Shown here: positions 3,282 through 56,748 of the stretch, piece by piece | Layout: each line of letters starts with the position of its first letter | Position numbering within the stretch: position 1 is the first letter of the stretch | NCBI GenBank assembly: GCA_963825865.1 | Contig: CAWGVG010000026.1 | Coordinates: forward strand, 64,001-128,000 | Source of the DNA: an uncultured Nitrososphaeraceae archaeon | Lineage (GTDB): Archaea > Thermoproteota > Nitrososphaeria > Nitrososphaerales > Nitrososphaeraceae | Length of the DNA stretch: 64,000 nt | Reading direction: 5' to 3' | Notes under the pieces: model-generated | What the model saw: the letters and a program-made list of their open reading frames with translations, nothing else | What the model was told of the DNA's origin: nothing | The model's database searches: none | Position numbers and translations under genes: made by a program

Positions 3282-3590
3282 CTAGTGTGTTGGTATTCCT
3301 TTTACTGGTAGTACCGCGATGGGGTTTACTCTTGGAATAATTAAGGGTTGAGCACGATCAGCACAAAATGGTGTTGCTGTAATACTGGCAAATGTTACTA
3401 GGACTGATCCGGTCATTCCGCCACCTGTACAAACTATACCGCTACTGCCAGGTGTTGCTAGTAACGGAGTTCCCTCTTGTGAACAAGTTGCGTTGTTTCC
3501 TGAATGGGTACATACCACATTTTGAGCTTCTTGTTCTTGTACATTATCAAATCCACTTGCTGTGCCGTATTGTTTGTCTCTGCGGAGTTA
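3282..3590 (-). pseudogene. 5'-truncated member of the secreted GFDN/CTHP family
   Basis: In-frame RDKQYGTASGFDNVQEQEAQNVVCTHSGNNATCSQEG, homologous to 8059-8322; preceded by a stop and lacks a signal peptide. Confidence 0.75.
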
Positions 3591-3619
3591 AGAAACAGCA
3601 CTTGATTTGCTATATGATT

Positions 3620-3691
3620 AATTATACGAAATTATTCGGTATTAAATCATATTAAATAAATCAGCATTAACTTACTCAAGTCAAATATACA
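3620..3691 (+). promoter_or_regulatory. Orphan copy of the GFDN-family promoter (two upstream units plus the TATA-containing motif)
   Basis: TAACTTACTCAAGTCAAATATACA at 3668-3691; AATTAT...TCGG and AATCAT...TCAG units at 3620 and 3645. Confidence 0.6.
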
Positions 3692-4078
3692 TATGCCACT
3701 GGCTAGAAATCTAAGCATACATTACACTTGTTAGACAGACTGAACAAGTCCAATCTTAACAATCATTTCTCCATTAAACACTATAAGGATCTAGGAGAAT
3801 TATGATACATATAATTATATATTTAAATTTCTCATAACTACATACGATAAATAAAAAATCTCATATATTTTTATGAGTTGAAAAAAATTATATAAATGGT
3901 CCATATATCGTGTGATTGACAACTGAAGTGTTAACTTTCCAGCCCTGAAGCATGTGGGCTTGTAACTGCCTAAAAAAGAGCCGTAACCATAGTTTCATTG
4001 ACCGGAACTCTATTCTTTATGTTTAAAACTCCTGCATAATCTAGCAGTTCTTAAATCCACATTGCTCACACATAACGG

Positions 4079-4555
4079 TCATGCTACACCTGTGACATTT
4101 ACATGGGCGTATTGTTTCATGTTAGGGTCGTTACCACAAGAGATTTTTGCAGCTATCCTGTTTTCTCCTTCTTCAATTGGAGTATATTTAGAAGTCAGTG
4201 TTATACTCCACTGTGAGTAGTCATTGGCTCCGCCAGGACCATCTGCTACTGCTGGTTGATATGGTTTTACACGATTTAAATTTACAGTGATTTTGCAATC
4301 AGAAGCAGCGTTGGCCATGGACGTTCCTCTTACCTCAAGATCTTGGCCAATAGGTATTCTTTGACCATCTTGAGGTGATATTATTGTTATCGCACCATCA
4401 GGTAACGTTGCCGTTGATGGCTGCGGTGTCGATGATTCTGGTAATTGGGCATATGAAACATTAGCTAAAAAAACAGTAGTAGTAGGAGCAAGCATTATCA
4501 TAGATAAAGAAAAGGCTATCACAACAGGTATTACTGATATCTTTTTAGGGGTCAA
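4079..4555 (-). CDS. Secreted protein with an Ig-like domain
   Basis: Signal peptide ending VSYA, P/T/S linker, then ITIISPQDGQRIP...EVRGTS...C...YSQWSITL...GENRIAAKISC. Confidence 0.7.
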   Translation of the reverse strand: MTPKKISVIPVVIAFSLSMIMLAPTTTVFLANVSYAQLPESSTPQPSTATLPDGAITIISPQDGQRIPIGQDLEVRGTSMANAASDCKITVNLNRVKPYQPAVADGPGGANDYSQWSITLTSKYTPIEEGENRIAAKISCGNDPNMKQYAHVNVTGVA

Positions 4556-6453: not shown

Positions 6454-6667
6454 TACAAAAATTTTACCACACTAACCATATAAGCATAGAGTAATTATGG
6501 TAAGCCATAGTGCCATACATACACATCGCTATACATAGGCATTCCGAAACAACAAACTGACTGTTCATACCATAACAGTTGCTATAGTTATATACATTTT
6601 ATTTATTGTTATTAGATATAATGTATGATGGAAATCAAAAAATCTATTGTTATTTGATAGTCTCAAT

Positions 6668-6726
6668 AATTATATCGGATAATTCAGCAAAAACAAATAG
6701 CATCACTTACTCAAGGCAAATATATA
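6668..6726 (+). promoter_or_regulatory. GFDN-family promoter
   Basis: AATTATATCGGATAATTCAG unit at 6668 and TCACTTACTCAAGGCAAATATATA at 6703-6726, about 25 nt before ATG 6752. Confidence 0.65.
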
Positions 6727-6751
6727 GAACGATCGAAATGCTTGGTAACAT

Positions 6752-7350
6752 ATGAACAACACCAAAACTCTAGCAGCTACTGTCTGCTATCTTAATCGCA
6801 ACAACATTAGTAGTATGAGGAGCATTCGGAGCAACATCCGCATTTGCTTATCAAAAGAAAGGAGCATCACAAGAAAATATTAAAAATGGTAACACAGTTA
6901 CCATCCAGGCATGCAAACAAAGAGGGTAAGTAAGTGGAAATGATAATACACTAGGACGAGAATGTCAAAACGTGATATATACCCATCCAAGCAGCGATGC
7001 AACCTGTGTAAGGGATCCGGGCAATGAAAAACCAGTAATATCACCAACATCAGGCCAACTCCGGGTACGTTATTAGTTAAAAAAATCGTAGTCTGTAAAG
7101 ACGATATGGCCACATCTATAGTAAGAGATGAATGTCCTAACCCTGGAGACTTCAAAATAACAGTAACTGGTACCCCATCCTGACCCAGATTCATTCAAGG
7201 GAAGTGAAAGTGGCACTCTTGTTACACTAGTTGCAGGTCGTTACTCAGGTGATTGCAACGCAAATGGCTCTGGTACGATAAAGGCAAACGAGCATCAGAC
7301 ATGTACTGTTACAAACACAGAACAAGACAAGGAAATGAAGAATTATTAGA
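6752..7350 (+). pseudogene. GFDN/CTHP-family secreted protein with a C-terminal SpaA/prealbumin-like domain, disrupted
   Basis: MNNTKTLA...SAFA YQKKG...KNGNTVTIQACKQRG*VSGNDNTLGRECQNVIYTHPSSDATC, then TLLVKKIVVC...PGDFKITVTG...ESGTLVTL...SGDC..GSGTIKANEHQTCTVTNT; several stops and frameshifts. Confidence 0.75.
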
Positions 7351-7915
7351 CATTATTGAGACACAATACCAAAAAGAAGGGCAATTTAAACCTCCCAACT
7401 CTTTTTTTAATTTTAAATAAAGTTTAGTAATGATTTGAAAAATTTACGGAAAAGGCAGAATAAAAGGTGTTTTATCAGGTTCTGCAGAGTAGTGAAGGCC
7501 TTGTTGCATGCAAGTTGTATTAATATTACTATCGCACATATACCGAAATGCGCTCGCTTGTTGTTGCAAAACTAATGCAGTAAAAGCTCCTCCTATCACT
7601 ATTACTGCCAGCATCAGTAGTAGTAGTATTAATATTATCGTGATAATTTAATGTCGTCTCCAAAGTCATTATCATTACTAGAGATATATTGGATTAGGTA
7701 GTTATTGCTGTATTTTGTTAATGAAGTTGTTTCTAAATTATCTACTATTATTATTAATACATATATCTCACTTATAATTTACGATCAATACTGTTATATT
7801 CATGAAGTTTTCAATTTTAATAGATATTATTTTCTTATTGTAACCTTTTAAAAAATTGTATTACTAGTAATATATATAAATAATAAGTAAGTTCTCATAG
7901 TTTGGTAACGTAAAT

Positions 7916-8026
7916 AATTATGCTAAACAACTTAGTAGCAAATTATACTACAGAAATCAGGTACTAGATTATACTAAAGACGTCAGTAATAACAAACAGT
8001 AGTAACTTGCACAAGTCAAATATATA
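7916..8026 (+). promoter_or_regulatory. GFDN-family promoter with three tandem upstream units
   Basis: Units at 7916, 7941 and 7967; TAACTTGCACAAGTCAAATATATA at 8003-8026. Confidence 0.65.
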
Positions 8027-8058
8027 GATGATATCATAAGGCTTATGACGAAATTTAC

Positions 8059-8322
8059 ATGAACAACACAAAAACTCTAGCAATAGTTGCTGTCTTAACA
8101 GCGGCAACATTAGTAGTGGGATTAACAGTCTCAGCAACATCAGCAGCATTTGCTTTCAAGAGGGGACAAGACGATAGTAAAAATGGTAACACAGTTACCA
8201 TACAGGCAGAGAAACAAAAAGCTTCAGTAAGTGGATTTGATAACGATCTAGAACAAGAAGCTCAAAGTGTTATCTGCACACACCCTGGCGAAAACGCAAC
8301 CTGTACTAGCGAAAGCGGTTAG
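8059..8322 (+). CDS. Small secreted protein, intact GFDN/CTHP family member
   Basis: Signal peptide ending AFA, core NGNTVTIQAEKQKASVSGFDNDLEQEAQSVICTHPGENATC; TATA upstream and T-rich terminator downstream. Confidence 0.85.
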   Translation: MNNTKTLAIVAVLTAATLVVGLTVSATSAAFAFKRGQDDSKNGNTVTIQAEKQKASVSGFDNDLEQEAQSVICTHPGENATCTSESG

Positions 8323-8367: not shown

Positions 8368-8401
8368 TTCTTTTTTTACTACTACCACAACCTTTTTTCT
8401 T
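8368..8401 (+). terminator. Oligo-T terminator, exact 34-bp copy at 14950-14983
   Basis: TTCTTTTTTTACTACTACCACAACCTTTTTTCTT directly after 8059-8322. Confidence 0.6.
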
Positions 8402-16057: not shown

Positions 16058-16783
16058 TCATCGAGTAGCTGAAGATCCACCCTGTGTAAATACGTATATA
16101 CAGTTGCTTGCCTTAGTATCTCCCTCAGATGGATTAAAGTCTAGTACCAGAGCAGATTGTGATGTGCCACCAGTTCTTGTATTTGCACCACAGTTAAAAT
16201 AATCTTTACCAGATCCTCCTATTAAAGTATCAGAAGAAGCTCCTGCATATAGCTGATCGTTTCCAGGCCCACCAACAAGAGTATTTGTTCCAGTTCCGCC
16301 AAAGAGGAGATCATCTCCTTCTCCACCAATAACTAGAGCATTTCCAGCTCCGCCATTAATTTCATCATTTCCATCTCCACCATATAACTTAGTAGCGCCT
16401 GATCCTCCTGTTATAACATCGTCACCCTTTAGACCATATATAATAGAGTCAGTTACCGACACGCCAATAATGATGTCATCTTTGTCTGTGCCGATTATTA
16501 GCGGGCAACTGCTGGCACACGAAGGTCCTGTTATCAGATTTTTTGGAATATCGCTGCCTTTTATTGCATTAGAAGGAAGAGGGAAATTTTGATTAGGTGG
16601 TGTTATCAAATGATTTGGAATAGATAGCCTGTTACCAAGCCCTAAACGGTGGTCTTTGCTTCCTCCTGCATTCGCTAACGGTAGCAGTGCTAAATTAGAA
16701 GAGAGCATTAATATCAATATTAGCATACTAATTATGCCAATTGATCCGGACAATGTAAAGCTATTTTTCCTTAAAGAAGACAA
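16058..16783 (-). CDS. Secreted RTX/hemolysin-type calcium-binding repeat protein
   Basis: Signal peptide and multiple GGxGxDxLx nonapeptides (GGDGNDEIN, GGEGDDLLF, GGPGNDQLY, GGSGKDYFN). Confidence 0.88.
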   Translation of the reverse strand: MSSLRKNSFTLSGSIGIISMLILILMLSSNLALLPLANAGGSKDHRLGLGNRLSIPNHLITPPNQNFPLPSNAIKGSDIPKNLITGPSCASSCPLIIGTDKDDIIIGVSVTDSIIYGLKGDDVITGGSGATKLYGGDGNDEINGGAGNALVIGGEGDDLLFGGTGTNTLVGGPGNDQLYAGASSDTLIGGSGKDYFNCGANTRTGGTSQSALVLDFNPSEGDTKASNCIYVFTQGGSSATR

Positions 16784-18128: not shown

Positions 18129-20388
18129 ATGACTACTAAAGATAACAGTAATAATAATAATAGTAATAATTATCTGTCAATAAAGATACTTGAAGCTTAC
18201 AGTAGGGATGTAGGCCGCGGCGTTGCTCGAATTGATTACGAGTCTATGGATTCTTTGAGTGCATCTACAGGTGACGTTATTGAGATTAAAGGTAACAAGC
18301 GTCGAACAGTTGCCAAGTGTTTGCCACTTTACCCTTCAGATGAAGGAAAAGGCATAATCAGAGTTGATGGGCTTGTCAGGAATAATGCCGGCGTCGCTAT
18401 AGGGGATACTACCGTGGTAAGAAAAATCAAGGCAGTCCCCGCCGAGAAAGTTACAGTTGCGCCGTTAGAGGCAATACCTTCTGTCGATGAGAGGTATTTA
18501 GCCGATGCTCTTGAGAGCGTTCCCCTTATCAAAGGAGACAATGTCATGGCTCCGTACTTTGGTGGGAGACTTGCATTTCAAGTTATAAATGTGACGCCAC
18601 CTCCGTCGGCTGTTGGTGCTAGTGCTAGTGCTGAGGCTTTCATGGTTACCACGAAGACGGTATTTCATATAACCGATAAAGATCAAGCGTCAGGGCACGG
18701 AGTTCCGCAAATTGCATACGAAGATATCGGCGGATTAAAAGAGGAAATCCAAAAAGTTAGAGAAATGATTGAACTTCCATTAAGACATCCAGAGATATTT
18801 GAAAAGCTGGGTATTGAAGCACCAAAAGGAGTGCTGCTCCATGGTGCTCCGGGCACGGGCAAAACCCTACTTGCAAAGGCAGTAGCCAATGAAAGCGACG
18901 CTCATTTCATTAGCATCTCTGGACCTGAAATAATGAGCAAGTTCTATGGTGAATCAGAAGCACGTTTGAGAGAAATATTCAGAGAAGCAAAGGAGAAGGC
19001 GCCATCCATCATGTTTGTTGACGAAATTGATTCTATCGCTCCAAAGAGGGAAGAAGTAATGGGCGAAGTCGAAAGGAGGGTAGTGTCCCAGTTATTATCT
19101 TTGATGGACGGTTTAGAGGGAAGGGGTAAAGTCATTGTAATTGCTGCCACGAACCGGCCAAACGCACTTGATCCGGCATTGCGACGTCCAGGGAGATTCG
19201 ATAGAGAAATAGAGATCAAGGTGCCTGATAAACGCGGCCGATTGGAGATATTGCAAATCCACACACGCAACATGCCGCTGAGCACTGATGTCGATCAGGA
19301 AAGAATAGCCGCAGTAACCCATGGTTTTGTAGGTGCAGATTTAGAATACTTATGCAAAGAGGCAGCCATGAAATGTTTGAGAAGGCTGCTGCCCGAACTT
19401 AATTTAGAAGATGAGAAGCTTGCCCCAGAGGTATTGGATAAATTGATTATAGTCAGAACTGATTTTGAGGGTGCTATAAGAGATGTTATGCCGTCTGCCA
19501 TGAGAGAAGTCTATTTAGAGCCACCTGATGTTAGTTGGGAAGACATAGGAGGTTTGGACGAAGTTAAGCGTCAATTACAGGAAGCAGTGGAGTGGCCTAT
19601 GCGTTATCCAAATCTGTACAAGGAGCTGGGACATATGATTCCAAAAGGAATCCTGTTGCATGGACCTTCAGGAACTGGTAAGACCATGCTTGCAAAAGCT
19701 GTAGCTACAGGATCTGAAGCCAATTTCATCAGCGTAAAGGGCCCAGAATTAATGTCAAAATGGGTGGGCGAATCTGAGAAAGGCATTAGAGAAATTTTTA
19801 GGAAAGCAAGGCAAGCCTCTCCATGTGTGATATTTTTTGACGAAATTGATTCTATCGCCCCTATGAGAGGAGGAGGGGCAGCAGGGATGGGAGAAGGAGG
19901 AGGATGGGTAAATACCGGTACAGAAAGGATGATTTCCCAGCTTCTGACTGAGCTGGATGGCATACAGGAGACTGCACGGAGTAATTGTGCTGGCTGCAAC
20001 CAATAGGGTTGACATGATAGATACGGCGCTAATAAGGCCTGGAAGATTTGACAAAATCGTGTTTGTGCCCAAGCCTGATATAAGTACAAGGCAAAAGATT
20101 CTAGAAATATGTGCAAAAGGTAAACCTATAGACAAACACATGAACATGAAAGCAATTGCAGAGATTACAGAAGGGTTTAGCGGCGCTGACGTATCTGCAA
20201 TTGTTAATTCCGCAATTTCTTTGGTATTGCACGAATATTTACAGAGGTATCCTACACCAGAAGAGGCAGCAAAACACGCTTCTGAGGCGATTGTTTCGCC
20301 ACACCACTTTGAAGAAGCGGTCAAGAAGATAAAGACACAAAGGGATATGAAGCCATTAGAGAAGGCGAATTTATCACAATACAGGTAA
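18129..20388 (+). CDS. cdc48: CDC48/VCP (VAT) AAA+ ATPase, one frameshift near 19970
   Basis: N-domain [10 protein letters not shown], two Walker A ([16 protein letters not shown]), Walker B FVDEID/FFDEID, and RRPGRFD/IRPGRFD across two overlapping ORFs. Confidence 0.95.
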
Positions 20389-26026: not shown

Positions 26027-26233
26027 CTATTTGTGGCAGTTGACGCAAATTATGTTACTTGCGAGTTGAGTTACATGATTAAAAAAGCCGGTCACGTGTG
26101 CCCTTTGATCGATGCTCTGGGTAACATTAGTATTACCGCCTCTACTGGTTGCAAATGCGGGTGTTACGGCTAGTGTTCCTACTACTAATACTGCCACTGC
26201 CAGCAGTGCGAATATACCTATGGTTTTATTCAT
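26027..26233 (-). CDS. Small secreted protein, divergent minimal GFDN-family member
   Basis: Signal peptide ending PAFA; GNTNVTQSIDQRAHVTGFFNHVTQLASNIIC aligns without gaps to the 8059 core. Confidence 0.75.
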   Translation of the reverse strand: MNKTIGIFALLAVAVLVVGTLAVTPAFATSRGGNTNVTQSIDQRAHVTGFFNHVTQLASNIICVNCHK

Positions 26234-29715: not shown

Positions 29716-30734
29716 GTGAGTTATGAAAATATGACTTCTGAGTTCAATAAAGATAATTCCAAAAACCAGAGAGAATATCCTAATTCTAATTTACAATTAC
29801 AAACTTCTATTACTGATTCTAATGCTGTATGTTCTGTATGCAAAAGCAATCAAATAATTACAGATATTGAATCTGGCGAGATTATATGTAGTAAATGTGG
29901 CCAGGTTATTTCAGAGAAGGTCCAGGAAATACGACCTGAATGGCGGAATTTTGCTTCACAGTCATCATCATCAGATGGATCCTTAAATGATAGAAATAGA
30001 ATAGGTATGCCAACAACCTTAGCTCGACACGATATGGGGCTATCAACAATAATCGGAAGAACTGACAGAGACGCCAGTGGACAAAAAATAGACGCAGGAA
30101 TGCTCTCTGCAATGGGCAGGTTGAGGACTTGGGACTTAAGGACAAAGATTCACACACCTACTGAAAGAAATCTTAAGCAAGCCTTTTTTCAACTTGAAAT
30201 ATTAAAAGACAAACTTGGACTACCAGATACTGTAGTTGAAAAAGCGGCATACATCTACAGAAAGGCTCAGGAAAGACAATTGGTACGAGGTAGGACAATT
30301 TCTGGAATTTTGGCTGCTGTCCAGTATATATTACATGTAGAGAAATGGGCATCTCAAGAACGTTAAAAGATATAGGTACCAATAGTAACGTTAAACTCAG
30401 AGAAGTTGCTAGAAGCTATAGGCTACTATACCTTGAACTTGATCTTAAAATCCCAATAGTTGATCCTATGAAGTATATTGCAAGAGTGGCAAACAAGGCT
30501 AACCTGAGTGAGAAAACTAAACGACAAGCGGCAGAGATTATGAACAATGTTACTAAAAGAGAGATATCTGCTGGAAAAGATCCAATGGGGCTTGCAGCAT
30601 CTGTACTTTATGTATCCTGTATTAAAACTGGTGAGAATAGAACCCAAAGTAGTATTTCAAAGGCGGCAGGAGTAACAGAAGTGACTCTCAGAAGTAGGTA
30701 CAAGGATCTCGTAAATCAACTTCAGTTAAATTAA
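29716..30734 (+). CDS. tfb: Transcription initiation factor IIB paralogue (frameshift near 30320)
   Basis: CSVC...GEIICSKCG, PEWRNF, HDMGLST, LVRGR, GKDPMGLAAS and AGVTEVTLR. Confidence 0.92.
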
Positions 30735-32759: not shown

Positions 32760-32986
32760 GACAAAAGAAAGAAAAGAATAAGTCAAAGAAAGGATCAAAA
32801 ATATTTTCAGTTATAAGGAGAAGGAAAAAGATCCAAATAACAGCTGATCTTAATCTATATATTCATTTAGAAATATTAAAGTTGAAAATTGATGAACGAA
32901 AATAATCTTAAACTCCTTGCTTTTATTATTGGTAATTTTTAATAACATGGCATCCGATTATACACCTAGCCTTACAACTATAGAGG

Positions 32987-33967
32987 CTAGACATCAGACT
33001 TTATAGGCTCCTTAGACATATAGCTTTTCTTTATACTGTTAACTGTTAGATAGGATGAAACGAGCAATACAGCTATGCTTATTATAATAAATAATACTTG
33101 AAACGGTGCAAGCGCTGCTCCTGCTGCTGAAGGTGCTGCTACTGCTGCTGCAGCTAAACTACTAGGTGCACCAGCAGCACTTATTATTGTGCCGGCTATT
33201 GTAAAAAAAAATGTACCAGCGCATGTCGGGCATGCAGTAAAAAGACCCGTTGCGGCTCCAATTCCGCTAAAACAACATGAAGTATTTTTTGTATTTTTTT
33301 TAGATCTCTTGTTTTGAAATACATACAACGCAAGTGTCATGTTCACGCTAACCAGAGTAGACAGCACTACTGTAAGAATTAGGTTTATCGGAATTACAAA
33401 CACAATTAGATTATCGGATATGTAAGCAGTAAATGTTGGAACAAGGCCAGGTAGATTGCAGCACGGGGTAATTATCCAAGATGGAATGGTTACTTGATAT
33501 ATATGAGAAAATGATACGTATGGTCTGAAAATTATAATTTGAGAAATAAAAGCAAAAAGCAGCGCATATGCAATTAATACAGAAATGAAGACTAGCCGAT
33601 ACCTTTTTGCTTGTGAAATGATATCTACAACAATCGGTAATAACATTCCACTATTATATCCTTTTTTAACATCAATGGCTGATTGAACTTTCATTTTCTC
33701 GGCTAAACATATTCGATACACACTATATCCTATTACAACCAAGGATCCAACCAAAAATAAAAGGACTGCTAATCCAAGGGTGGACATCGACTGAACAGTC
33801 TTCGAAGAGATGATACCAATATGTAATGGAGATGTGATATAACCATAAAGCGCAAAAACCACTATAATCGCAAATGTAGCAAAAAATGAAATTCTGATAC
33901 CTCGATTTCTGATATCAACGTAATAGTCTTTCTGCTGCATATTTATAATCCATCTCTCTAAAACCAT
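32987..33967 (-). CDS. Multi-pass membrane protein with CC and CPTC motifs
   Basis: About 6 TM segments; TPCCNLPG, SCCFSG and FTACPTCAG. Confidence 0.7.
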   Translation of the reverse strand: MVLERWIINMQQKDYYVDIRNRGIRISFFATFAIIVVFALYGYITSPLHIGIISSKTVQSMSTLGLAVLLFLVGSLVVIGYSVYRICLAEKMKVQSAIDVKKGYNSGMLLPIVVDIISQAKRYRLVFISVLIAYALLFAFISQIIIFRPYVSFSHIYQVTIPSWIITPCCNLPGLVPTFTAYISDNLIVFVIPINLILTVVLSTLVSVNMTLALYVFQNKRSKKNTKNTSCCFSGIGAATGLFTACPTCAGTFFFTIAGTIISAAGAPSSLAAAAVAAPSAAGAALAPFQVLFIIISIAVLLVSSYLTVNSIKKSYMSKEPIKSDV

Positions 33968-34311
33968 ACTCCAAATATATTGTTTCTATATATACCCTCT
34001 GCCATTTGATATTTTACATTGAATAATAAAGAATATGCTATACCAGAGGAGAAATTACAACCAAAAAAGAAGAGAATTATAAAAACGCTCATCTATAGGT
34101 TCAAAAATAGCGAAAATGACATCATCCTGCTTCTTACATAACTGCTACCTGTCCAGCAATGTATGTTGCTAATGCGGTTCATTCAGGTAATCGATAAATT
34201 TTCAAAGAATAGAAAAACAATAATAATAAAAATCAAATTGTGACATATAGTTCTAACCATTTAGCTGAATCTTGAATCTTTCAAAATTCCTTCTAGGACT
34301 GAAAAATAAGA

Positions 34312-34533
34312 CTATGTGTTACTATTATATAATTCATATATTGCGACATTTATTTTTTTAAGTAATTTCTTTTTCGCTTTGTTAGCTTTTTCATTAGTCC
34401 TATAATCCTTTACTTCTAACAAAGTTTGTAAGTGTTCTAACTCTGGTCTTGTCAAAACATTCAGGCCTTTTTTTGATGTAAGTTCGAGTAGCCTTCTTCT
34501 TTCTGTGTCATCATCATTCTTTGAATTTTGCAT
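34312..34533 (-). CDS. Small helical hypothetical protein
   Basis: 73-aa ORF with TTTATC about 25 nt upstream. Confidence 0.55.
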   Translation of the reverse strand: MQNSKNDDDTERRRLLELTSKKGLNVLTRPELEHLQTLLEVKDYRTNEKANKAKKKLLKKINVAIYELYNSNT

Positions 34534-35455
34534 AGCTTAGACAATAGATCTATCTTGATAAAGTATTTGTAATAGTCTGTTCTCTTCTTCCACTTTCGAT
34601 AATCATAACATGATCCATGATGCCATTTTGATATAACGACATGTCTTTAGTTTTCCGTGCTGTTCAATTTCAGTTTCCAATGAGTCGGTAATAGAAAAAC
34701 CACATTTGGAACACTCATGTAATAATTTGATCATAACATGTTATTAGATGAAGTATAACTGTTCACTATTAATATACCCTTAATAGGATATTAATACCAG
34801 CATATACAATATCCAAAAATATGGATAACAAGAGGAAGAAAATGTTCGGATGATCTCCACTATATATGCTCCTCTCTGTAGCTTCTGCATAAATAAAAAC
34901 GGTATTGTAAGATATGGTGATGAAGACGCTAGATTATTTCTCAGTCAACTATATCCATATCGATGTTCAGTTACTTGGATTATGGTTTTAATAGAAGGAA
35001 AACGTATCTCTTCTTAAATATAAAACAATGAAGTCTAACTTCAAAGTATTAATCATTTGTGAAGTCTTGGTAGTGTTGCCTTCTCCTTTTTTGACTCTGA
35101 AAAGCAAGCTATTTCCATATAAACACAATAATATTGGAGCAAATATCACAAAAAATAACAATAATGTATCCCTATCTACTACGGCAGTAACATCCTCACT
35201 ATCATGAGTGTGATCAAACTTTATGGAAACATGTTTACCAGTCAAGTAGGTTACAGGTACTAATAGCTGCATAGCTGTTTCAGGTATAATGTAAAGTAAC
35301 AGAGCTGAAGCAGATGGGGATACCCGTTTGCGATTAAAACTAAATCCACAATTTACTAAGCTGATAAATTCGGCTAATATAAAAGATCAAAATGGTGACT
35401 TAGTTCCATGCACTAATTTATGATTAAAGTAGAGTATGCTTGAATAAAAAAAAGC

Positions 35456-35893
35456 TTAAATTTTGACTTTGTTATCCAAGGCTACATTTTCAGGAATAGG
35501 GGATGATACTATGCTATATGAATTCCCGTCTAGGTCTTTGAATTTAGACATTATGCCTCCCCATTCCTGCTTTTCAGGTTGACTGATATCAACTCCCTGA
35601 TTCTTAAGTTCTTTGTATGTTGATTGCATATCGTCTGAATAAAACCATATGCCCGTTTCTGTTCCAATACCCTTCTTGGCAGCTTCTACTATTCCTTCAT
35701 TTGACATCATCTGGACATTTGGCAGCATAAGGCTAATCGTTGATTGAGAGTCTTTTGGCGCTACTTCAATCCATCTTATGCCGACAAATGATATATCTGT
35801 TTTAATCTCAAATCCAAGTTTTTGACTATAAAATTCCACAGCTTTTTGTTGGTCTGAGACTATTACTACTATTCCACCCATCGTGCCAATCAT
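35456..35893 (-). CDS. VOC/glyoxalase-family protein
   Basis: VSDQQKAVEFYSQKLGF, RWIEV and EWGG...FKDLDGN. Confidence 0.9.
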   Translation of the reverse strand: MIGTMGGIVVIVSDQQKAVEFYSQKLGFEIKTDISFVGIRWIEVAPKDSQSTISLMLPNVQMMSNEGIVEAAKKGIGTETGIWFYSDDMQSTYKELKNQGVDISQPEKQEWGGIMSKFKDLDGNSYSIVSSPIPENVALDNKVKI

Positions 35894-36391
35894 TTTCTAA
35901 CCATTCTTTTAATCAACCAGTAGATTATAAGAAGGAATGCTATAGACCTTCATGAAGAAAGTATCCTCTTCCTGGTCGCTGTGATACTATGAACAGTTAT
36001 TCTGGGCGGCAAAATTGAGTCAATTTGTATCAATTCCCTCCGAATCTTTCGCATTTTTTGGCAGTGCTGTGCTCTGTTATGTGCGCGGTGATTGCTTTAA
36101 ACAGCAGTTGTTCCTGTGCTATCACTCATATTACTGCTATAATGGGCTGGAATACTAAAAGGCAATCCAAGTATTTGGTTATTCACTGTAAGGACGTTAA
36201 TAAAACTATAGTTGTTATTATCATCAGTGGATGTAAAAAGATAGTTCGCATATTGGTGATGGTTGCCGTCTTCGAAACCTTAATCAAAACGGCGAGGATG
36301 GCAAAAATTTATGATTCTACTCCATATATATACATGTAGAACTACTCTATTTTTATAGAGTAAATTATTATCTAATGCTGGTATTTAGTAG

Positions 36392-37667
36392 ATGACCTTA
36401 CAACAGCTATTTACTCCCATGCAATTCTTTCAGGATGCTAATTCATTATCTTCACCTGCATTGTCCTCTGATTTCATAGTTCAAGACTTTGCAGTAATTA
36501 TGATAGTCGCCGCAATAATGCTAGTTATTACCTACAAGTTAAAACAGCCGATGGCGGTTGGTTATATTTTAGCAGGTATGATCATAGGTCCTCACACGCC
36601 ACCGTTTAGCTTGATACGGAATGTCAATACAGTAAATGTTTTTGCAGAATTAGGAATAATCATGCTTTTGTTTGTCATTGGCACTGAATTCCCTATCGCT
36701 AAACTTAAATCTGTAGGTAGAATTTCAGTTGTTGTTGCTTTAGCGGAAACAATTGGAACTTTATTATTTTCATTCTTTGTAGCACAAGCATTAGGATTTT
36801 CATCCTTTGATTCTATGTTTCTTGCATTAGCGATGTCTATTACAAGCACAGTAGTAACTATTAGAGTTTTAGAAGAACTTGGTATGATAAAGGATGAGTC
36901 TACCATTTTGCTCTTGGGTATCTCTGTTGTAGAAGATATTATAGCCATTACGACACTTGGCGTGTTTCAATCGATTGCTATTAATGGAAGTGGTGGAATA
37001 TCTATTTTACATATTTCTATTTCAATAGGTATAGTAGCGGCATTTATAGGTAGCATACTAATCCTTGGTTCTAGGTTTATTCCAAATATTATTGACAAAA
37101 TCAGCAAAACAAATGATTACGCAATACTTTTGATTGTTATTCTTGGACTAGCATTTGGTTTATCCTTTGCAGCTAAAGGCCTTGGTCTATCAGCTGCTAC
37201 TGGAGCATTCCTGGCTGGAGTATTAGTAGCAGAGTCAAAAAATGCAGCAACAGCCCGTGTAATCACTATCCCGCTCAGGGATATGTTTGTCTGCTCTGTT
37301 CTTTATATCGATAGGCGCATTGATGGAAGTATCTCTTATTCCTTTGTTTATCGTCCCTGCGTTGGTGCTTATTTTAAGCTCGTTTGCTTCAAAGTTCTTG
37401 ATAATAACCCTCATCGTGATCAGATCATCAAAATACAACAGCGTAACGGCGTTAAGAACAGGATTTGGAATGGCATCGGCCAGAGGAGAGCTATCCTTAA
37501 TTGTAGCTAAAGGAGGTCAGGACGTAGGTGCTATCTCATCAGCGGTCTTCCCAATAATAGGCGTAGTAACTATTGTAACAATTTTTATGACTCCTTATAT
37601 ACTCAAGTTTGGAAGGCAACTTACAACTTCATTATCATCATTTGCATCAGAAGAAGAAAAGGAATAA
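36392..37667 (+). CDS. CPA2/KefB-type cation:proton antiporter (frameshifted)
   Basis: LKQP..VGYILAGMIIGP, AELGIIMLLFVIG, SVVEDI, GAFLAG and RGELSLI. Confidence 0.9.
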
Positions 37668-38246
37668 AAGGACAATGAAAACCCACGACAACTATGGTTC
37701 TGTTTTAACGCTGACATAGGGATTACTATATCATGTCATCCCCAAACACCGTACATCTATATTTATATACACTGGAGGAATGAGTGTTTACATTTATGCA
37801 TTGATCAAACTCATGTAAAACACTAAATTTAAAGGAAATAAAGGATAGTATTTGATTTGCAAATTTTTTTGAAAGACAGATGACTGTAACTCATTTGGTA
37901 ATAATGTGTTGAATAGCAAAAATGACAAGGTGGAAGGTATTTAATGAAAATATCATTGGCATATCAAGCTTAACAAGTAATAACAACAACAATAATAATA
38001 ATATTATTAATTTCTCTTCCTTTTCCTAAACTACCATCTCCTCGTCAGTTAAGCCTTATCCAATAAGCCCTCTGTTTAAATGACTGAATCTCTTCTTGCT
38101 TTATATCAACAAAATTATCACGTTAATTGGAATGAAGTTAAGAGATTGAGCTCCAATGTGAGATGATTAAGTTCCTTTTACTAACAGCACATACATACAC
38201 TAAGTTGAAATACCTGTGAATATACAATGAAGACATCCGTAATAGA

Positions 38247-38720
38247 ATGCTTCCAAGTATAATATCAAAGGTAGCTTCTGTGAAAATCAGTCGAAAGGAA
38301 GGAACAGTCAGAACACCAGGTAATGATGATGGCGATGACAGCGACGGCAATCAGCCTAGCGACCATGACCGTAGCTATGATGATAACAATAAAGAAGGAA
38401 TTCACAACAAATGTGAGAGTTTAGATGAGGGAACATTTGCATTTATGCATTGGATGAGCTCAGCGGACAAGAAATCCTTAACTTCTGACAATCCCATAGT
38501 TTTAGTGAAGTTTGTCAATGACAAACATACAATACTATATGATACAGATATACAATCTGAAATATATATAGAGATAGACAATGGTGTTCCTTACTGTAAG
38601 CATTGCAAAGCAGACGATTGCTCTCATGTGGGCTTTGCTATATGCGTTGAGCAATTTTATGGGAACAGACGTGGAAGTGGAAGAGAAGAAACAGTAGAAG
38701 ATATCATACTTGACAATTAA
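38247..38720 (+). CDS. Hypothetical protein with a SWIM-like Zn motif
   Basis: YCKHCKADDCSHVGFA. Confidence 0.6.
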   Translation: MLPSIISKVASVKISRKEGTVRTPGNDDGDDSDGNQPSDHDRSYDDNNKEGIHNKCESLDEGTFAFMHWMSSADKKSLTSDNPIVLVKFVNDKHTILYDTDIQSEIYIEIDNGVPYCKHCKADDCSHVGFAICVEQFYGNRRGSGREETVEDIILDN

Positions 38721-39181
38721 TATGCCACGATGTTTCTGATATTTAGAAACGCAGCCAACAAGATTTCAAGGAGGTTTGGTCCTTGCATATAGGGGGTTAG
38801 CTACCATCAATAATTCCAATTTTTATATTGTTATTGTGTCTTAGGAATGCAAATTACCTTGTCATTTTTGAATATGTGGTTATATCGTTACTGAATCTCC
38901 ATAGACAGACCTATCAATCTATATGTCACTATTCGAGATTCATAGAAATTATAATTAAATAACAAATACTTATTTTAAAATTGAACTTATACTTGCTAGT
39001 GTTTGTCTCAAGCCTTTAGAATAAGAGTATTCCACAGAAATGAGTATGAAAGAGTCAAAAAACTTATTTCAGATATCAGTATTAATGAATTTAAGTTTAC
39101 TCGAGATTGATGTTAATAAATGAGTAAGATAGTTTTTAGCGAGATTCCCAATTTCTAGGTACCTGGATAGATAACGCTGTT

Positions 39182-39578
39182 TTGGACGTTCTGTTGAGAG
39201 TGGGGTGTCACGAGCTCGCTCAATTTACTAAAACTAAATTTAAAAGAACTGACAACTGGATTTTTAGAACCGCTACACCTTTACCAGATTTACAAGTTGG
39301 CGGAGATGCATTACTCAAAGAATTGGCAGCATCATTAAAAAATGAATTGGAGGAAAACGGATGATCCTTTTATGTGGTATTCCTTCTGAGACCCCCCACT
39401 AGCAATGGTTGCCAGAGAACTTGACAAATTGAGTATACCACACATAGTATTTAACCAGCGCGAATTTGCCAATTCGAGAATAGGTTTCGAAATGTCAAAT
39501 GATCTTATAAAAGGCAAGCTCCAATTAAAAGAGAGCATATCGCCTTGAAGATATTCGAGGTGTCCATATTAGATTAAT
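39182..39578 (+). pseudogene. Remnant two-gene operon: C-terminal fragment plus the N-terminus of an ATP-grasp (RimK/MvdD-like) ligase
   Basis: ATGA overlap at 39361; MILLCGIPSET(P)LAMVARELDKLSIPHIVFNQREF...LEDIRGVHIRLM with frameshifts. Confidence 0.5.
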
Positions 39579-39885
39579 GTTGCTTACCAAAGAATACCTT
39601 AACATCTGGCCTATAAAGATAATAAATAATTATTGCATTTATGATAACAGGCAATATAGATACTACATTACCAGTTACAATTGAAGCAAGACCTAAAGCA
39701 ATTCCAATAAATGATAATACTAAAGTTATAGTCCAAGCCCATCCTTTTCCTTTCCATAAACCATACGCCATGACCAAAAATGCAATACCCAATGGTATGA
39801 GTATTATACTAACAAGAAATCCTATACCACTAATTATTGTGAGCAACGCTATTATAGTTACTCCTAAAGGTCTAGATTTTTGCAT
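39574..39885 (-). CDS. Small four-helix membrane protein
   Basis: RPLGVTIIA...AYGLWKGKGWAW...IIYYLYRPDVKVFF. Confidence 0.8.
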   Translation of the reverse strand: MQKSRPLGVTIIALLTIISGIGFLVSIILIPLGIAFLVMAYGLWKGKGWAWTITLVLSFIGIALGLASIVTGNVVSILPVIINAIIIYYLYRPDVKVFFGKQH

Positions 39886-40223
39886 ACTGTTTTATTATCA
39901 ATGAACGATACTTATTAATTTTATAAAAAAAGAATCAGATATTTTGTTATATCTCATCTTTGTTCTTTCCCATCTCTTTCATAAACGACTTAATTGGTTC
40001 CCACAATCCCTTCTCCGCTGGATCAGGGTCATTATTACCATTTCGTTTTCACATATAGGAAAACAAAATATTTCTGTAGAGGAAAACTAATCACCTCATC
40101 CCTCCACGAATTTCTTTTGTATTTGTCCTAGCCATCTAATATCACCATCGTTTGATTGATTGCTTGTAATAAACCTCAAAATCTAAGCCTGCGATATACT
40201 GTGGGAACTACTTTTACTAAATA

Positions 40224-41281
40224 GACCTATTGCGTAATTACGAAAGAAAGAAAATCTCTTTATGATACTTAACTTTGGCTTGCTTGCTTTCTAAAGTAAC
40301 ATCATTCCATTGGTTCGCATTATCCTGAAATTTACTAGTCCTGAAACAATGTCAGAAGCATGATCATATCTTACAAGCTTATTTCTAAATTTAGTACCCA
40401 TTATTCCGAACTTTTTAATTCTGCTCACAGTATGCTCGACTATTACCCTTAGCTTGGAATGCTTTCTATTGTGTTTCTTTTCTTCATCTGAGAGTTCACT
40501 TTTCCTTTTCTTTCTAACTGGAAGCACAGACTTTACAGTGGGAAAGTCATTCTGAACTCCCATGTACCCAATCAAATACATTCTCAACTTGCGGTGGAGT
40601 TGTTGTAGGATGTTTATTTTTGAAAATCTCATAATCATGTATTCTTCCCCGATCATGACCTGTTTTGTGCAGTATGGTACCTCATTGTTTACCATATATT
40701 GTGTCTTTACAGTATGTTTCTTCTTTTTGCCAGAGTAATAGCTCTTTCTCCTTCTCTTGTTCTTTGGTCTTGGGATCTCTTGTTCGGAAGAGTCAATAAA
40801 TGCTTTGAAACCGGGAAAGTACTCTTCTACTTCATCTATAGTTCTAAGTCTTCTTGTACAGTTTATACAACTTCTTTGGCAATGGGATACACAGTTTGAC
40901 AAGTGGTTCAAGCATAGATATATCTCTGCAGATATTACTCTGGTCAAGATCGAACAGAAATCCTGAAAGTGTATACGTTATGTACAGCCTATAATACACT
41001 AAAAGTATCAAGAACCTTTCTTTAACTTTTAGTTTGAATGGTCTACCCGCACCTACTTTCCTTTCTCTTTTCCTATTGGAAAGACGCTTTCTTTCATGCT
41101 CATCATATTTTGATTCTATATCTTTGGCAATAACATCAAATTCTGATATTTCAAGTCCAGTAAATGATCTAAATAACAAAGACCTCTTAGATAGTCTAGC
41201 ATAAGACATCAAGACAGCATCACCGAATGAATGCTGTACAACGTAAAATATAGCTGTAAGCCTTCAATTACGCAACAGGTC
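40224..41281 (-). mobile_element. IS5-family (ISL2-group-like) insertion sequence with a frameshifted transposase
   Basis: TIRs GACCTATTGCGTAATT / AATTACGCAACAGGTC flanked by TA on both sides; FRSFTGL, GRPFKL, FIDSSEQEIPRP, YSGKKKKHT and RVIVEHTVSRIKKF. Confidence 0.9.
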
Positions 41282-41472
41282 TAATGTAATTAAATATTCC
41301 ATTTCTATATGTCGACTTGCCTAATTCTCATACATAATGAAGAAAATGACCACAATGAATAAGACAGTTTCTTCATATGGCACCAAAGTGAGATGAGTCA
41401 TGATATCAATTCATTTATTTATTTGCTAACCTTCATAACAATGTATAAGACTATTTGATGATTTGTAGCATC

Positions 41473-42373
41473 ATGCAAAACAATAATAATCTGCAGGATA
41501 ATCGACTTGTGGAAAAATTTTGTGAACTATATTCAGCGTCAGAATCAAAAACACCATCATCCTCCAATCATCAAGGAAACAGAAAGATCACTTACTCATT
41601 TGTTACGCTGTTGCAGGATATCCAGATATCAAAACCACAAAAGAAATTATATCGACTATGATACAGGCAGGTGCTGACATTATTGAAATAGGAATTCCAT
41701 TTTCTGATCCCATTGCAGATGGTCCTATAATTCAAGAGACTTCTTTTATTTCCTTAACTAATGGAATAACACCGGACAAGAGTTTAGAAATTGCTAAAGA
41801 CATTAGAAAGGAATTTCCAAAAACCCCTATAGTTTTGATGACATATTCAAATATTCTCATTAAAGCAGGATTAAGTAAATTTATAAAAAATGCAAAACAA
41901 TGCGGAGTCGATGGTTTCATACTTCCTGATATGTCAATTGAAGAATCTGATAAATATGTTAAAGAAGCATCACAATTAAACCTTGCAACAATATTTCTAG
42001 TATCACCTAACACAAATGAAGAAAGATTGCGCTCTATTGCTTCTAAATCCAGTGGATTTCTTTATTTAATTTCAACATATGGAACAACAGGTATTCGTAA
42101 TTCATTTGAATCTCTCTTGTGCAGAGCTATATTAAAAACAGCAAGAGAGTTGTAGGTTCTTCACTTCCCATTGCAGTGGGATTTGGTATTAGTAAGCCAG
42201 AACATGCTAAATTCATGATTAAAGCTGGTGCAGATGCAATAATAGTGGCCAGTGCAATAATAAATATGATGAAGATTTATGCATCTGATAGAAAGAATGC
42301 AAAAAAGAAGAAAGAAATGCTCAAGGATATAAGCAATTTTGTATCAATCATGAAAAACGCGTGTAGAACATAA
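41473..42373 (+). CDS. trpA: Tryptophan synthase alpha subunit (two frameshifts)
   Basis: AGYPD, IEIGIPFSDPIADGPIIQ, LMTYSN, GFLYLIS..GTTG and AVGFGIS. Confidence 0.93.
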
Positions 42374-42445
42374 CCATATAAAACGTTTGAACATAAAACA
42401 TAACCTATAAACTCTTACTGTTCATGCAAAACAACAAAGGGATAA

Positions 42446-42760
42446 CAAAGGGATAATACGAGCTGATAACGATTCTTTTTAAAGCCTATTTTTCTAAATT
42501 TACTTTAATGTTCAAAATATGTAAGGATATGTTAGAAGGATAAATGATAGCAGAGGGCCTTAAGAGGTATCACGAAGATGACTTGAAAAATTGCAATATC
42601 TTAGTTTGATATATTTATATCCATCTCAAGTAGGGGCTTGCTTTCATGATATAATCAACTGCCAATCCATCCTTTCTCGGGTCCTTGAAGACAGGTGAGC
42701 GCCAGGACTATAAAGAGTAAATACAGAAATACCAAAAGTCAAAAGTGTTTACTGATTGGG
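42446..42760. repeat. Dispersed repeat copy 3 plus an attached terminase-like fragment
   Basis: Near-identical to 9021-9312; preceded by a tandem duplication of CAAAGGGATAA (42435/42446). Confidence 0.85.
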
Positions 42761-43021
42761 TATTCCTTATGGATTCAAAAGAGACTTACAGTTTATTAGT
42801 CCTCTGCTGCAATTCTTAATCGATAACTTTCATGATATTAACAAAGTCTAGATATCTATCACACTGTGTTAAGGCAAGTGGGTGGGCACTTCCTTCTTCA
42901 CTAAATTGCCTGGTTCACTACAGCCTATTCTCATTGTGTTAACATTTGTAATTGGTTTTGAATCATTTTTGAGTTTTTAGTATATTACTTTGACACCATC
43001 TGCTATGTTATTTTCAGCGGT

Positions 43022-43345
43022 GTGAGCCAGTGTGATGCCATGTATCAAGTCGATTACAGAGATACAGGACTTCCACTTGAAACAATTCGTTCGGTAAGTA
43101 AGGTTTCTGACGGCATAGAAGTTACTGTAAGCGTGTCAGCACCACAGACAATGAGATATGATGGTTTAAACCTTGCTGATATAAAAGACCCTGCAAATAA
43201 TAAGTCAGTCTTTCAAGCAAGATACCAAGTATGGTGGAAAGAGCCTACAAAGGGATTTGAATCCTTAGGCGGAGTATTGTGTCCTCGGGTACTGCTTCTT
43301 GTTTTCGGGGCTCTGGTCGTTTGGATGTTTTTGTTAAGGCTATAG
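43022..43345 (+). CDS. Hypothetical protein fragment with a C-terminal TM segment
   Basis: 107-aa ORF; no family recognised. Confidence 0.3.
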   Translation: MSQCDAMYQVDYRDTGLPLETIRSVSKVSDGIEVTVSVSAPQTMRYDGLNLADIKDPANNKSVFQARYQVWWKEPTKGFESLGGVLCPRVLLLVFGALVVWMFLLRL

Positions 43346-44239
43346 CGGGTGACATTAATAGCAAGTGGTTCCAAAATGGGTGGTCAAACTGGCTGGCTGA
43401 CTCCTAATTCCACAGAATCTGTTTTGATACTAATTTCGGTAAGTAAGCAAAAATAATAAGAGGAAACGGTATTCAAAGAGTTATTTTTTTGAATGCATCA
43501 CAAATTAGGTCGTATTTGTATATTTGTATGTGTTTTTTTATGATACATTCACCACAGTCTTTAACTTCTTGGTTATTACATTATTCAACAACCAGCTATC
43601 ATCTTTGTCTTTCCATCAAACCATTAACATATCCTGTTTCAAGCATCAATAGCGCGTACAGAACATTTGCAATATGTGTCTGTACCTATTCAATCCCACT
43701 ACAGGGTCATTTTCTACATTTGTTTGAGAGGTGTATGTTATCACTGTAGTATTCTTCCCCAATATTTTCAATTTAAGAATCTCTTTGATTTGTATTTGTG
43801 AATCATAAGTTTTTGTTGTATATTCCAACTCATTATTTACTTTTTTAGTTGTTAGACTCCTTGTAATTCCAACAAAGAACTCAGGAAAAATTTGTTCTAA
43901 ACGTGTATCTTTAAGAGCACGATAAATGACATTCAGCTGGAACACGTAACGAGAGAGATTTGCTAATTGACGACATATTACACTATTTCTAATGTATACT
44001 CAACTATCCAATCATTTTATAGGTTGTTTTAGATGGCATGCGCTAATCTAGATAATAATCCTTGCCCGATTATATGACATAGTCTATATCATACAAAATT
44101 TATTTTTTCCCTTCTAGACAATGTAATGAATTTCATGCTTAATAACTAACATCTCTGTTCTATTTCTGTTGCATGCAGATGACTTTCCATTCGCGACAGA
44201 AGTCTAAATTGTGATTGGTCAATCAATCATAGTTTATAT

Positions 44240-44611
44240 TTGTATTCATCACCGCTAATATTAACAATAATAATTATGATAATGGAAGCAAGGTGTGGTC
44301 ATGTAGAAGAAAAATTATATGCAGATGCACACCATGGGCTATGTAGAAAATGCCACTCCAATTTTGCATTTCTGTTAGAGTTAGAACAAAAGTTTGGTGA
44401 AGATGCATTAATAGAGTACTGGTATGCCAAAATACTCACTTATTCATCATCAGAAAGAAAAACAGAAGAACTAGACTGCTTTATAGATCATTTAATTGAG
44501 TTATATCAACAGAATTTAATCAAGTTTCCGTCAAAAGAGAAATATATCAGGAAAATGCTATATATGTTGCATTCACTTAAAAAACCATTTGATATAGAAA
44601 CATTAAGATGA
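44240..44611 (+). CDS. Conserved hypothetical protein with a CGH...CxxC motif
   Basis: EARCGHVEEKLY...GLCRKCH; true start probably MEARC. Confidence 0.6.
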   Translation: MYSSPLILTIIIMIMEARCGHVEEKLYADAHHGLCRKCHSNFAFLLELEQKFGEDALIEYWYAKILTYSSSERKTEELDCFIDHLIELYQQNLIKFPSKEKYIRKMLYMLHSLKKPFDIETLR

Positions 44612-44729
44612 AGATTACATGACCATTTTTCTGCATATGATTAAGTCAACTGTCATAGTTAATGTCGTCATATCATCTTCCAAATCGTTTGTCCAAATAT
44701 TCTGATACTACAGCTTTCTGTTCTTCTAT

Positions 44730-45010: not shown

Positions 45011-45092
45011 CTGAACGCTGATGCCAACTTTTCTGCCTTGAACATACGGGCGAGCATTATTTCGTGCTAATTCATAATTTTATAATAATTTC

Positions 45093-56728: not shown

Positions 56729-56748
56729 TGTAAGCAATAACAATGTTA

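Follow-up and report, generated by a model that had tools for sequence, protein, structure and literature searches.

Introduction

The chaplins ChpA-H of Streptomyces form a multigene family of small, Sec-secreted proteins, each with one domain of about 40–50 residues that contains a cysteine pair; short forms have little beyond this domain, and long forms carry extra C-terminal parts. In architecture they are the closest match to the protein family described here, whose reference member is the gene at 8059–8322 (+) of a 64,000-nucleotide stretch of DNA from an uncultured Nitrososphaeraceae archaeon. This whole stretch is called the window below, and a window position is the position on its contig (CAWGVG010000026.1, here C26) minus 64000. 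Chaplin domains are hydrophobic and surface-active, whereas the conserved core of the archaeal proteins is polar and acidic and has no match to the chaplin hidden Markov model (HMM); the sole match of that profile (PF03777) lies elsewhere in the genome and falls below the cut-off (E 0.8). The copy number also differs, eight chaplins comparing with about 47 promoter-linked copies in this genome, which lack a sortase-type anchor.

Other described systems resemble the family in part. The curli proteins CsgA and CsgB are likewise secreted, hydrophilic and N/Q-rich, with a glycine-containing turn between two polar strands. However, they consist of tandem repeats, whereas the archaeal proteins have a single core without a match to the Curlin_rpt profile; the archaeal host has no outer membrane, no CsgG was found in it, and the core contains cysteines and more charge. 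The vsp/vsa lipoproteins of Mycoplasma combine a conserved upstream region and signal peptide with variable mature parts, broken copies and rearranging loci. The archaeal family is similar in its many paralogues, conserved 5′ region and signal peptide, common broken copies and rearranging surroundings, but has no lipobox, no single expression site and a mature core that is itself conserved. Surface proteins with SpaA_2 domains (PF19403) are alike in the C-terminal passenger only, not in the core, and no cell-wall or membrane anchor was recognised here. Dockerin-type docking modules share with the family a small conserved module, proline/threonine-rich (P/T) linkers and unrelated passengers; unlike them, many archaeal members are the module alone. 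Expanded families of small secreted proteins with a conserved pre-region are already known as a kind, whereas the present family appears to be new, along with its core and promoter cassette. No mention of the core family was found in the full-text literature searched, including PMC6393860 and PMC11131427, a body of text from which subscription journals are mostly absent.

A Modular Family of Predicted Exported Proteins

We are confident that the 8059 gene belongs to a lineage-specific, modular family of small proteins, whose sequences predict export, disulfide bonding and co-regulation. Members have in common a cassette of promoter region, signal peptide, spacer rich in Lys, Gly and Asp, 46-residue core and, optionally, a P/T linker with a further module. 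The 8059 gene itself (8059–8322, +) is intact and translates into an 87-amino-acid (aa) precursor of the short form, with two cysteines in the core and no passenger module. Its codons 1–32 (8059–8154, +) encode a signal peptide that starts M-N-N-T-K, continues through about 22 hydrophobic residues and ends A-F-A; throughout the family, signal peptides begin M-N-N-T-K/R and pass through a long hydrophobic stretch to an A-x-A end. Across the family alignment A32 never varies, and A30 is conserved to at least 90%. An [A/S]-x-A site is present in 204 of 248 proteins (AFA in 121, ALA in 40, AYA in 16), the median length up to the A-x-A site is 34 residues (n = 248), and Tyr or Phe stands directly after the site in 148. 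These N-termini show the short polar N-region, hydrophobic core and small residues at −3 and −1 of Sec-type (class I) signal peptides, and the −3/−1 rule predicts cleavage after A-F-A. The class III motif of type IV pilins, which in FlaFind-type definitions is a basic residue followed by Gly/Ala and hydrophobic residues near the N-terminus, occurs in one of 248 N-termini, the usual sequence being K/R-T-L.

The signal peptide is followed by a short charged spacer (residues 33–42; 8155–8184, +), which in many paralogues is much longer and rich in Lys, Tyr, Gly and Asp, in some with Tyr-Lys-rich repeats. Family spacers have a median charge of +2, contain 21–23% Lys plus Gly, Asp, Asn and Tyr, and are probably disordered. 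In the family alignment the core of the 8059 product, of the 2-Cys type, extends from G43 to C82 (8185–8304, +), and 10 of the 46 core columns are invariant among 25 paralogues. Cores are composed of 22–23% N+Q, with alternating polar and apolar stretches and a median charge of −2, which places them between the positive spacer (+2) and a tail of −2 to −4 in proteins with a median isoelectric point (pI) of about 5. A five-residue acidic tail and the stop codon (8305–8322, +) complete the translated gene. The mature product would be an acidic, N/Q/T-rich protein of about 55 residues with one disulfide-closed loop.

The conservation extends upstream of the coding sequence. An nhmmer profile built from 33 paralogue upstream regions matches at 7882–7960 and 7969–8054, defining an upstream element of the 8059 gene at 7882–8054 (+). 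The element has repeated TCAG-N-A-N-TA words and a box resembling a transcription factor B recognition element and TATA box (BRE/TATA-like), AAATATATA, at 8018–8026, 33 nucleotides before the ATG. In the conservation profile it is recognisable from about −150 to the ATG; pairwise identity has a mean of 72% over the upstream 150 bp and reaches 82% around the TATA box, compared with about 62% at synonymous core sites. The DNA profile has 88 matches in the genome. The 74 TATA-proximal copies are followed by an intact core gene in 29 cases, by a broken core gene in 18, by another intact gene (mostly with a similar signal peptide) in 11 and by nothing recognisable in 16. These features suggest that the ~150-bp element acts as a promoter, through which the core-family genes would be co-regulated. 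A further secreted protein, encoded at 4079–4555 (−; 158 aa, no Pfam match), has paralogues on contig C36 that lie behind the same element, and the element is therefore not confined to a single family of exported proteins.

Three soil RNA libraries contain contigs that match 8088–8297, 8132–8298 and 8181–8319 exactly, and one RNA-library contig reaches 8360. Because paralogues differ by at least 9%, these contigs derive from the 8059 gene or from a near-identical strain, and they provide a weak hint that the gene is transcribed; contigs of RNA and DNA runs carry neither depth nor transcript ends, and the parts they leave uncovered are uninformative. Behind the gene, two T-runs (8371–8377 and 8393–8398; together 8371–8398, +) are the candidate for an archaeal oligo-T terminator and likely function as one.

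Cysteine Sub-Types and Passengers

Cys73 and Cys82 of the 8059 product flank an eight-residue loop that bears an N-A-T sequon. Cys73 is invariant, with conservation of at least 90% at T74, H75 and P76; among 248 proteins, the second Cys lies 8 residues on in 184, 6 in 57, 7 in 3 and 2 in 1, and no second Cys is found within 14 residues in 3. A further pair divides the family into two sub-types: of 290 unique proteins, 144 have Cys at both positions 51 and 68, 142 at neither and 4 at just one, with a similar split in an earlier count on 184 proteins (93 both, 90 neither, 1 one only). The 8059 product has Glu at 51 and Ala at 68, the sites that are Cys in the 4-Cys type. This covariation indicates the disulfides that a first-pass annotation of the window had proposed, and both the Cys loop and the 51/68 pair are predicted to form them. 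It is the sole solid structural restraint, and would join the flanks of the conserved S-G-F-D-N turn in a β-hairpin or β-arch. Mutual information within the core was computed on 236 unique strings (about 37 effective sequences); apart from Cys 51/68, the top-scoring pairs track the two sub-families, and no contact map was therefore drawn.

Tails of the 142 2-Cys proteins are short (≤25 aa) in 70, acidic or of low complexity in 29, helical in 4, prealbumin-like in 5 and of other kinds in 34, while the corresponding numbers for the 144 4-Cys proteins are 7, 3, 42, 37 and 55. The folded passengers of the 4-Cys type are one to three prealbumin-like β-sandwiches or a five-helix, four-Cys bundle. 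Swappable C-terminal passengers, one type of them prealbumin-like, had been proposed from the window, and a database relative, P0340, bears out the prealbumin-like type by scoring 36.6 bits against SpaA_2, above the Pfam cut-off of 25 bits. P0340, one of 12 proteins scanned, carries two SpaA_2 domains and a third module; among this genome's paralogues, SpaA_2 was matched in 1 of 24 and reached only E 0.016. The helical module is modelled by AlphaFold2 as five helices with a predicted local distance difference test (pLDDT) score of 85–90. A fold search with this model returned no usable match (best VIA-align Z 5.2, best Foldseek E 1.2), and its SAM, death-domain and BAF-like rows were set aside as helical arrangements that are common at such scores.

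Family Size, Distribution, and Selection

The first-pass annotation described five members, which understates the family considerably, as the genome holds about 65 related loci, and 47 core genes lie behind the common upstream element. The single 87-aa protein finds 89 matches in a six-frame search of the genome, and iteration of a profile over 25,951 open reading frames (ORFs) of at least 40 aa returned 55, 69, 73 and then 74 ORFs, which merge into the 65 loci; some of these have in common only the signal peptide or only the C-terminal module. In other genomes, a profile that includes the signal peptide finds weak matches in 12 of 24 from the same taxonomic family and in none of 16 from other families of the order. 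The annotation had also proposed a search of related genomes with an HMM of the core. This core-only profile (A4, 46 columns) matches 4 of 237 other genomes of the taxonomic family with a best E of 4.1e-6, and in its own genome gives E 3.5e-28 to 1.7e-22 among the matches listed. The plan recurs in distant relatives, where a same-type signal peptide leads into a charged spacer, with a core-like segment and a closing pair of Cys behind it.

Metagenome protein collections contain 363 family clusters of 47–153 aa and 248 of 154–2000 aa, nearly all named ‘hypothetical’ and without Pfam domains. Among 1.84 billion representative proteins, 184 match the core at E ≤ 0.001 and 135 at E ≤ 1e-10, at least one of the matches listed (P0346) being an unrelated repeat protein. 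One peptide pattern run against 185,579 species genomes, the own genome excluded, matched three stretches, none of which was confirmed. There are database proteins of 87 aa with 83–97% identity to the 8059 product, while the nearest intact paralogue in the genome is 78% identical; since these near-copies are closer than any intact paralogue, individual paralogues are maintained across strains. In other Nitrososphaeraceae genera, an N-terminus of the same type is found on small proteins (L049 and L034 in genome G017; L035 and L039 in G002 and G019) whose mature parts differ, being N/Q/G/S-rich, Cys-containing and in some cases internally repeated. A wider set of small, putatively exported proteins thus exists in the Nitrososphaeraceae.

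Selection was assessed over 149 pairs of 18 paralogues. The proportions of synonymous (pS) and nonsynonymous (pN) differences are 0.38 and 0.175 in the core (pN/pS 0.46) and 0.16 and 0.064 in the signal-peptide codons (pN/pS 0.40); both parts are under purifying selection. Silent-site conservation of the 5′ part and of the upstream DNA could stem from gene conversion or, alternatively, from DNA-level selection.

Family Loci in the Window

Searched in six frames with the 87-aa product of 8059–8322, the genome yields the other four window loci of the first-pass annotation and no sixth within the window. As the annotation had it, only two copies are intact, the 8059 gene and a divergent member of 68 aa at 26027–26233 (−), whose core ends C-x-x-C (match at 26033–26230, E 1.1e-6, 45% identity); the nhmmer profile detects no conserved upstream element near the latter. 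Three-frame translation identifies the remaining three loci as pseudogenes. The copy at 6752–7350 (+) consists of signal peptide, core, linker and prealbumin-like tail, disrupted by frameshifts and two in-frame stops (match at 6780–7022, E 5.5e-18, 58% identity, both stops included), and the core Cys has become Tyr; its upstream element is matched by nhmmer at 6648–6750 (+; C26 70648–70750). The copy at 56258–56728 (−) belongs to the 4-Cys type, carries a P/T linker and a prealbumin-like tail, and is split over three frames, as translation and search both show (match at 56433–56719 in three pieces, E 1.2e-5 to 0.01), behind an nhmmer-matched element at 56737–56824 (−; C26 120824–120737).

The third pseudogene, at 3282–3590 (−), is 5′-truncated, a reading that translation confirms, and retains the second half of the core with a different tail (match at 3474–3611, E 1.8e-10, one stop). 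At 3590/3591 this minus-strand copy directly adjoins an orphan upstream element on the plus strand (3591–3701; nhmmer match at C26 67591–67701) with no family gene after it, a boundary that may be either a rearrangement junction, by inversion or recombination, or a product of decay. The annotated A-F-A after the hydrophobic stretch is present in all four copies that retain the N-terminus, and the C-terminal continuations are of the three kinds originally described, in which the protein ends after the core, passes through a P/T linker into a prealbumin-like domain or runs into an unrelated tail. A tyrosine recombinase fragment (Phage_integrase, E 8.4e-7) lies at 56829–57263 (−), directly beside the broken 56258 copy, and a similar fragment is found in the cluster on contig C62.

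Comparison of the Core With Known Domains

Searches of Pfam, NCBIfam, PHROGs and PDB sequences returned no match to the core; NCBIfam gave a single, sub-threshold, signal-peptide-like match (19.6 vs. 52.5 bits), and a protein atlas returned only unnamed Nitrososphaerota clusters. The curlin-like label that had been attached to the core does not hold. Curlin_rpt (PF07012) is matched neither in the two intact window proteins at E ≤ 10, nor in 24 paralogues at E ≤ 0.1, nor in the six-frame genome at E ≤ 1, where 19 candidates were scored and the E. coli control was positive. Tandem cores are absent, exactly one core being present in 294 of 294 proteins, and the two core halves compared as profiles reveal no significant internal repeat (P 0.16, probability 0.4%), a weak test with profiles so short. 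CsgG is not found at E ≤ 0.01 in the genome (82% complete; E. coli control positive), nor among 41 ORFs scanned in three family gene clusters. Membership of the curlin family is rejected on these profile, single-core, internal-repeat and CsgG results.

Structure prediction is less informative for the core than for the helical passenger. AlphaFold2 gives the 87-aa precursor a mean pLDDT of 56, which makes the model too poor for a fold search, and scores the core at 40–70 in two runs (131 and 148 sequences). A core without a confident fold would fit folding on assembly, disorder or model failure equally. A four-copy complex prediction of residues 33–87 (alignment A2) scores 0.02 against a mark of 0.42, a result that speaks neither for nor against self-association.

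Possible Functions of the Family

The reading we favor, tentatively and at somewhat less than an even chance, is that these are co-regulated extracellular matrix or surface/adhesion proteins in which the core acts as a common association handle. The 8059 product would be exported by Sec and cleaved behind A-F-A to give the mature protein of about 55 residues, and the common promoter region would cause the whole set to be secreted together. The core would then tie family proteins to each other or to one common envelope or matrix partner, and the family would build or decorate a matrix or the cell surface, leading to adhesion or aggregation on soil particles. Such a role is proposed because the family combines surface-type passengers, P/T linkers, a basic-to-acidic charge layout and one common N-terminal module. 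Prealbumin-like domains typically serve surface adhesins and pilins as stalk modules.

Several observations weigh against this reading. The surroundings of family genes show no recurrent anchoring signal, partner protein or dedicated gene for secretion or assembly, and the role of association handle is deduced from architecture alone, for a core that stays at pLDDT ~40–70 in both models. The core-only protein is the commonest 2-Cys form (70 of 142), which fits a self-sufficient peptide, be it a fibre subunit, a signal or a toxin, at least equally. The 18 broken genes among the 47 promoter-linked core genes indicate that part of the family is decaying, or else that the assembly contains errors, and co-assembled close strains may inflate the copy number, as a 17-kb segment shared with contig C2 illustrates. 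RNA libraries can contain DNA, and their contigs are hence no proof of transcription.

A rival reading is that of diversified secreted effector peptides, used in antagonism or signaling on the logic of conotoxins, defensins and NCR peptides, in which diversifying, disulfide-bonded mature parts follow a conserved promoter and pre-region. Dozens of small secreted Cys-containing products, loci in variable, transposon-rich regions, and stronger conservation of the signal peptide and upstream region than of the mature part (pS 0.16 vs. 0.38) are in line with this. We nevertheless regard it as fairly unlikely: the core, with its invariant columns, is under purifying and not diversifying selection, the mature proteins are acidic, and prealbumin-like passengers are typical of surface proteins. 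In addition, no toxin family or domain was recognised in the 24 + 12 members scanned, a scan that unknown toxin folds would escape, and no conserved gene, immunity-like or other, was found directly downstream of family members. Short forms prevail in one sub-type and cargo-bearing forms in the other, as would be expected of a functional amyloid or fibre, the idea of the first-pass annotation, if the core were an intermolecularly stacking strand-turn-strand, 2-Cys proteins the bulk subunits and 4-Cys proteins the ones that graft cargo, a division like that of short and long chaplins or of CsgA and CsgB. The N+Q content and polar/apolar alternation of the core would suit stacking, AlphaFold2 folds the helical module well but finds no monomer fold for the core, and the Cys 51/68 pair sets the flanks of the S-G-F-D-N turn side by side. 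That contact, however, equally fits an ordinary β-hairpin of a small globular domain. Furthermore, the segment from N42 to C73 of the 8059 product has 7 charged residues among its 32, the core is always single and never forms an array, its internal repeat is not significant, and neither Curlin_rpt nor the chaplin profile nor CsgG is matched, which together leave a fibre distinctly unlikely. We place equally little weight on the fuller proposal that the core is a minimal self-assembling unit and about fifty co-regulated cassettes supply short 2-Cys subunits of a hydrophilic, N/Q-rich fibre or gel, with folded adhesin-like or helical cargo grafted on by long 4-Cys subunits, an archaeal counterpart of chaplins and curli that arose independently.

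Other readings give more weight to the 5′ part of the cassette or to the Cys loop. If the 5′ cassette were a recombination platform for the exchange of 3′ parts between copies, with silent or broken copies as donors, the products could be variable surface or decoy proteins selected by viruses or grazers. Synonymous divergence of the signal peptide is more than halved and the upstream DNA is conserved, as gene conversion predicts, and the 18 broken and 16 empty cassettes, the orphan element abutting an opposite-strand truncated copy at 3590/3591 and the integrase fragments nearby would agree with it; yet that junction may be mere decay, nearly all copies have their own promoter and hence no single expression site exists, the loci lack a consistently linked intact recombinase, and we consider the proposal quite improbable. 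It is very improbable that the hydrophobic N-terminus is retained, in which case the proteins would be membrane-anchored stalks, or pilin-like subunits that form a filament by packing of their conserved N-terminal helix. No other part of the protein is conserved as well as the first 21 residues, the stretch of hydrophobic residues is long (median 34 residues to A-x-A), and one database homologue bears the automatic name ‘FlaF/FlaG’; but a class III-type motif is present in just one of 248 N-termini, its basic residue is missing altogether in distant relatives, and the small −3/−1 residues are strongly conserved, as signal peptidase I requires. Least probable of all is extracellular binding of a metal such as copper through the Cys-Thr-His-Pro…Cys segment. 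Ammonia-oxidising archaea depend on copper, and the invariant C73 and highly conserved T74, H75 and P76 could be read as ligands, but the loop between the Cys varies in length (8, 6, 7 or 2 residues), the His is missing in several members, and about half of the members have a glycosylation sequon in the loop. A closed disulfide loop is the simpler explanation, and some fifty paralogues are hard to square with metal scavenging.

Host Genome and Neighboring Genes

The assembly that holds the window comprises 4.98 Mb in 62 contigs (82% complete, 2.8% contamination) with a GC content of ~34%. Archaeal amoA is present, and its product is up to 98% identical to that of soil metagenome-assembled genomes labelled Nitrososphaeraceae; judged by these genes, the host is a soil Nitrososphaeraceae ammonia oxidiser, and the guess of Nitrososphaerota in the first-pass annotation was correct. 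The window region is full of insertion sequences and split genes, and parts of it are near-identical to other contigs. An insertion sequence at 40220–41287, with a DDE_Tnp_4 transposase ORF at 40291–40947, has more than 50 copies in the genome at 75–99% identity. The segment of ~17 kb shared with contig C2 (window 32982–50810) is 94–97% identical to the start of that contig, and either arose by recent segmental duplication or comes from a close strain that was co-assembled. Because of such duplicated segments, both the copy numbers of the core family and its pseudogene calls could stem from co-assembled strains or from errors in the assembly. Ordinary genes are also apparently split or truncated, at 18129–20006, 29716–30734, 41658–42155 and 61236–62241, the set being Cdc48, TFIIB (two ORFs), a fragment of tryptophan synthase alpha (165 aa) and a histidine-specific methyltransferase (two overlapping ORFs); a Cdc48 copy on contig C36 is likewise split. 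Pseudogenisation or assembly frameshift errors could account for the split genes in the window.

The 41 ORFs scanned in three 20-kb clusters of family genes are housekeeping genes, mobile-element fragments and unknowns. Recurrent neighbors are response-regulator receivers, a ribbon-helix-helix and membrane-protein pair, transposases and DNA-polymerase/MCM fragments, and no dedicated modification genes accompany the core-family loci. The small gene pair lies between family genes on contigs C10, C14, C15, C24 and C47 (e.g., L006 and L015) and encodes a ribbon-helix-helix-like, DNA-binding protein and a membrane protein that we take to be FUN14-like; its recurrence suggests duplication of multi-gene units. 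Elsewhere in the window, an ORF at 16058–16783 (−) with RTX calcium-binding nonapeptide repeats (E 2.8e-18) encodes a probable extracellular protein. A thioredoxin at 52129–52572 was considered as an extracellular disulfide catalyst and dropped, as it has no signal peptide.

Implications for Soil Nitrososphaeraceae

Soil Nitrososphaeraceae are major nitrifiers, and little is known of their secretion or of their attachment to particles or to each other. The organism described here devotes dozens of genes, all behind a near-identical promoter region and signal peptide, to one type of small, predicted exported protein. The conserved 150-bp element is a way into the study of gene regulation in archaea, and the signal peptide could serve as an export tag. 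If the loci are decaying repeats of a genome rich in mobile elements, their interest would be mainly evolutionary, and if the fibre reading were true, the family would be the first protein matrix system described in ammonia-oxidising archaea. Should the matrix or surface role prove true, its members would be candidates for adhesion, aggregation or virus interactions in an important soil group.

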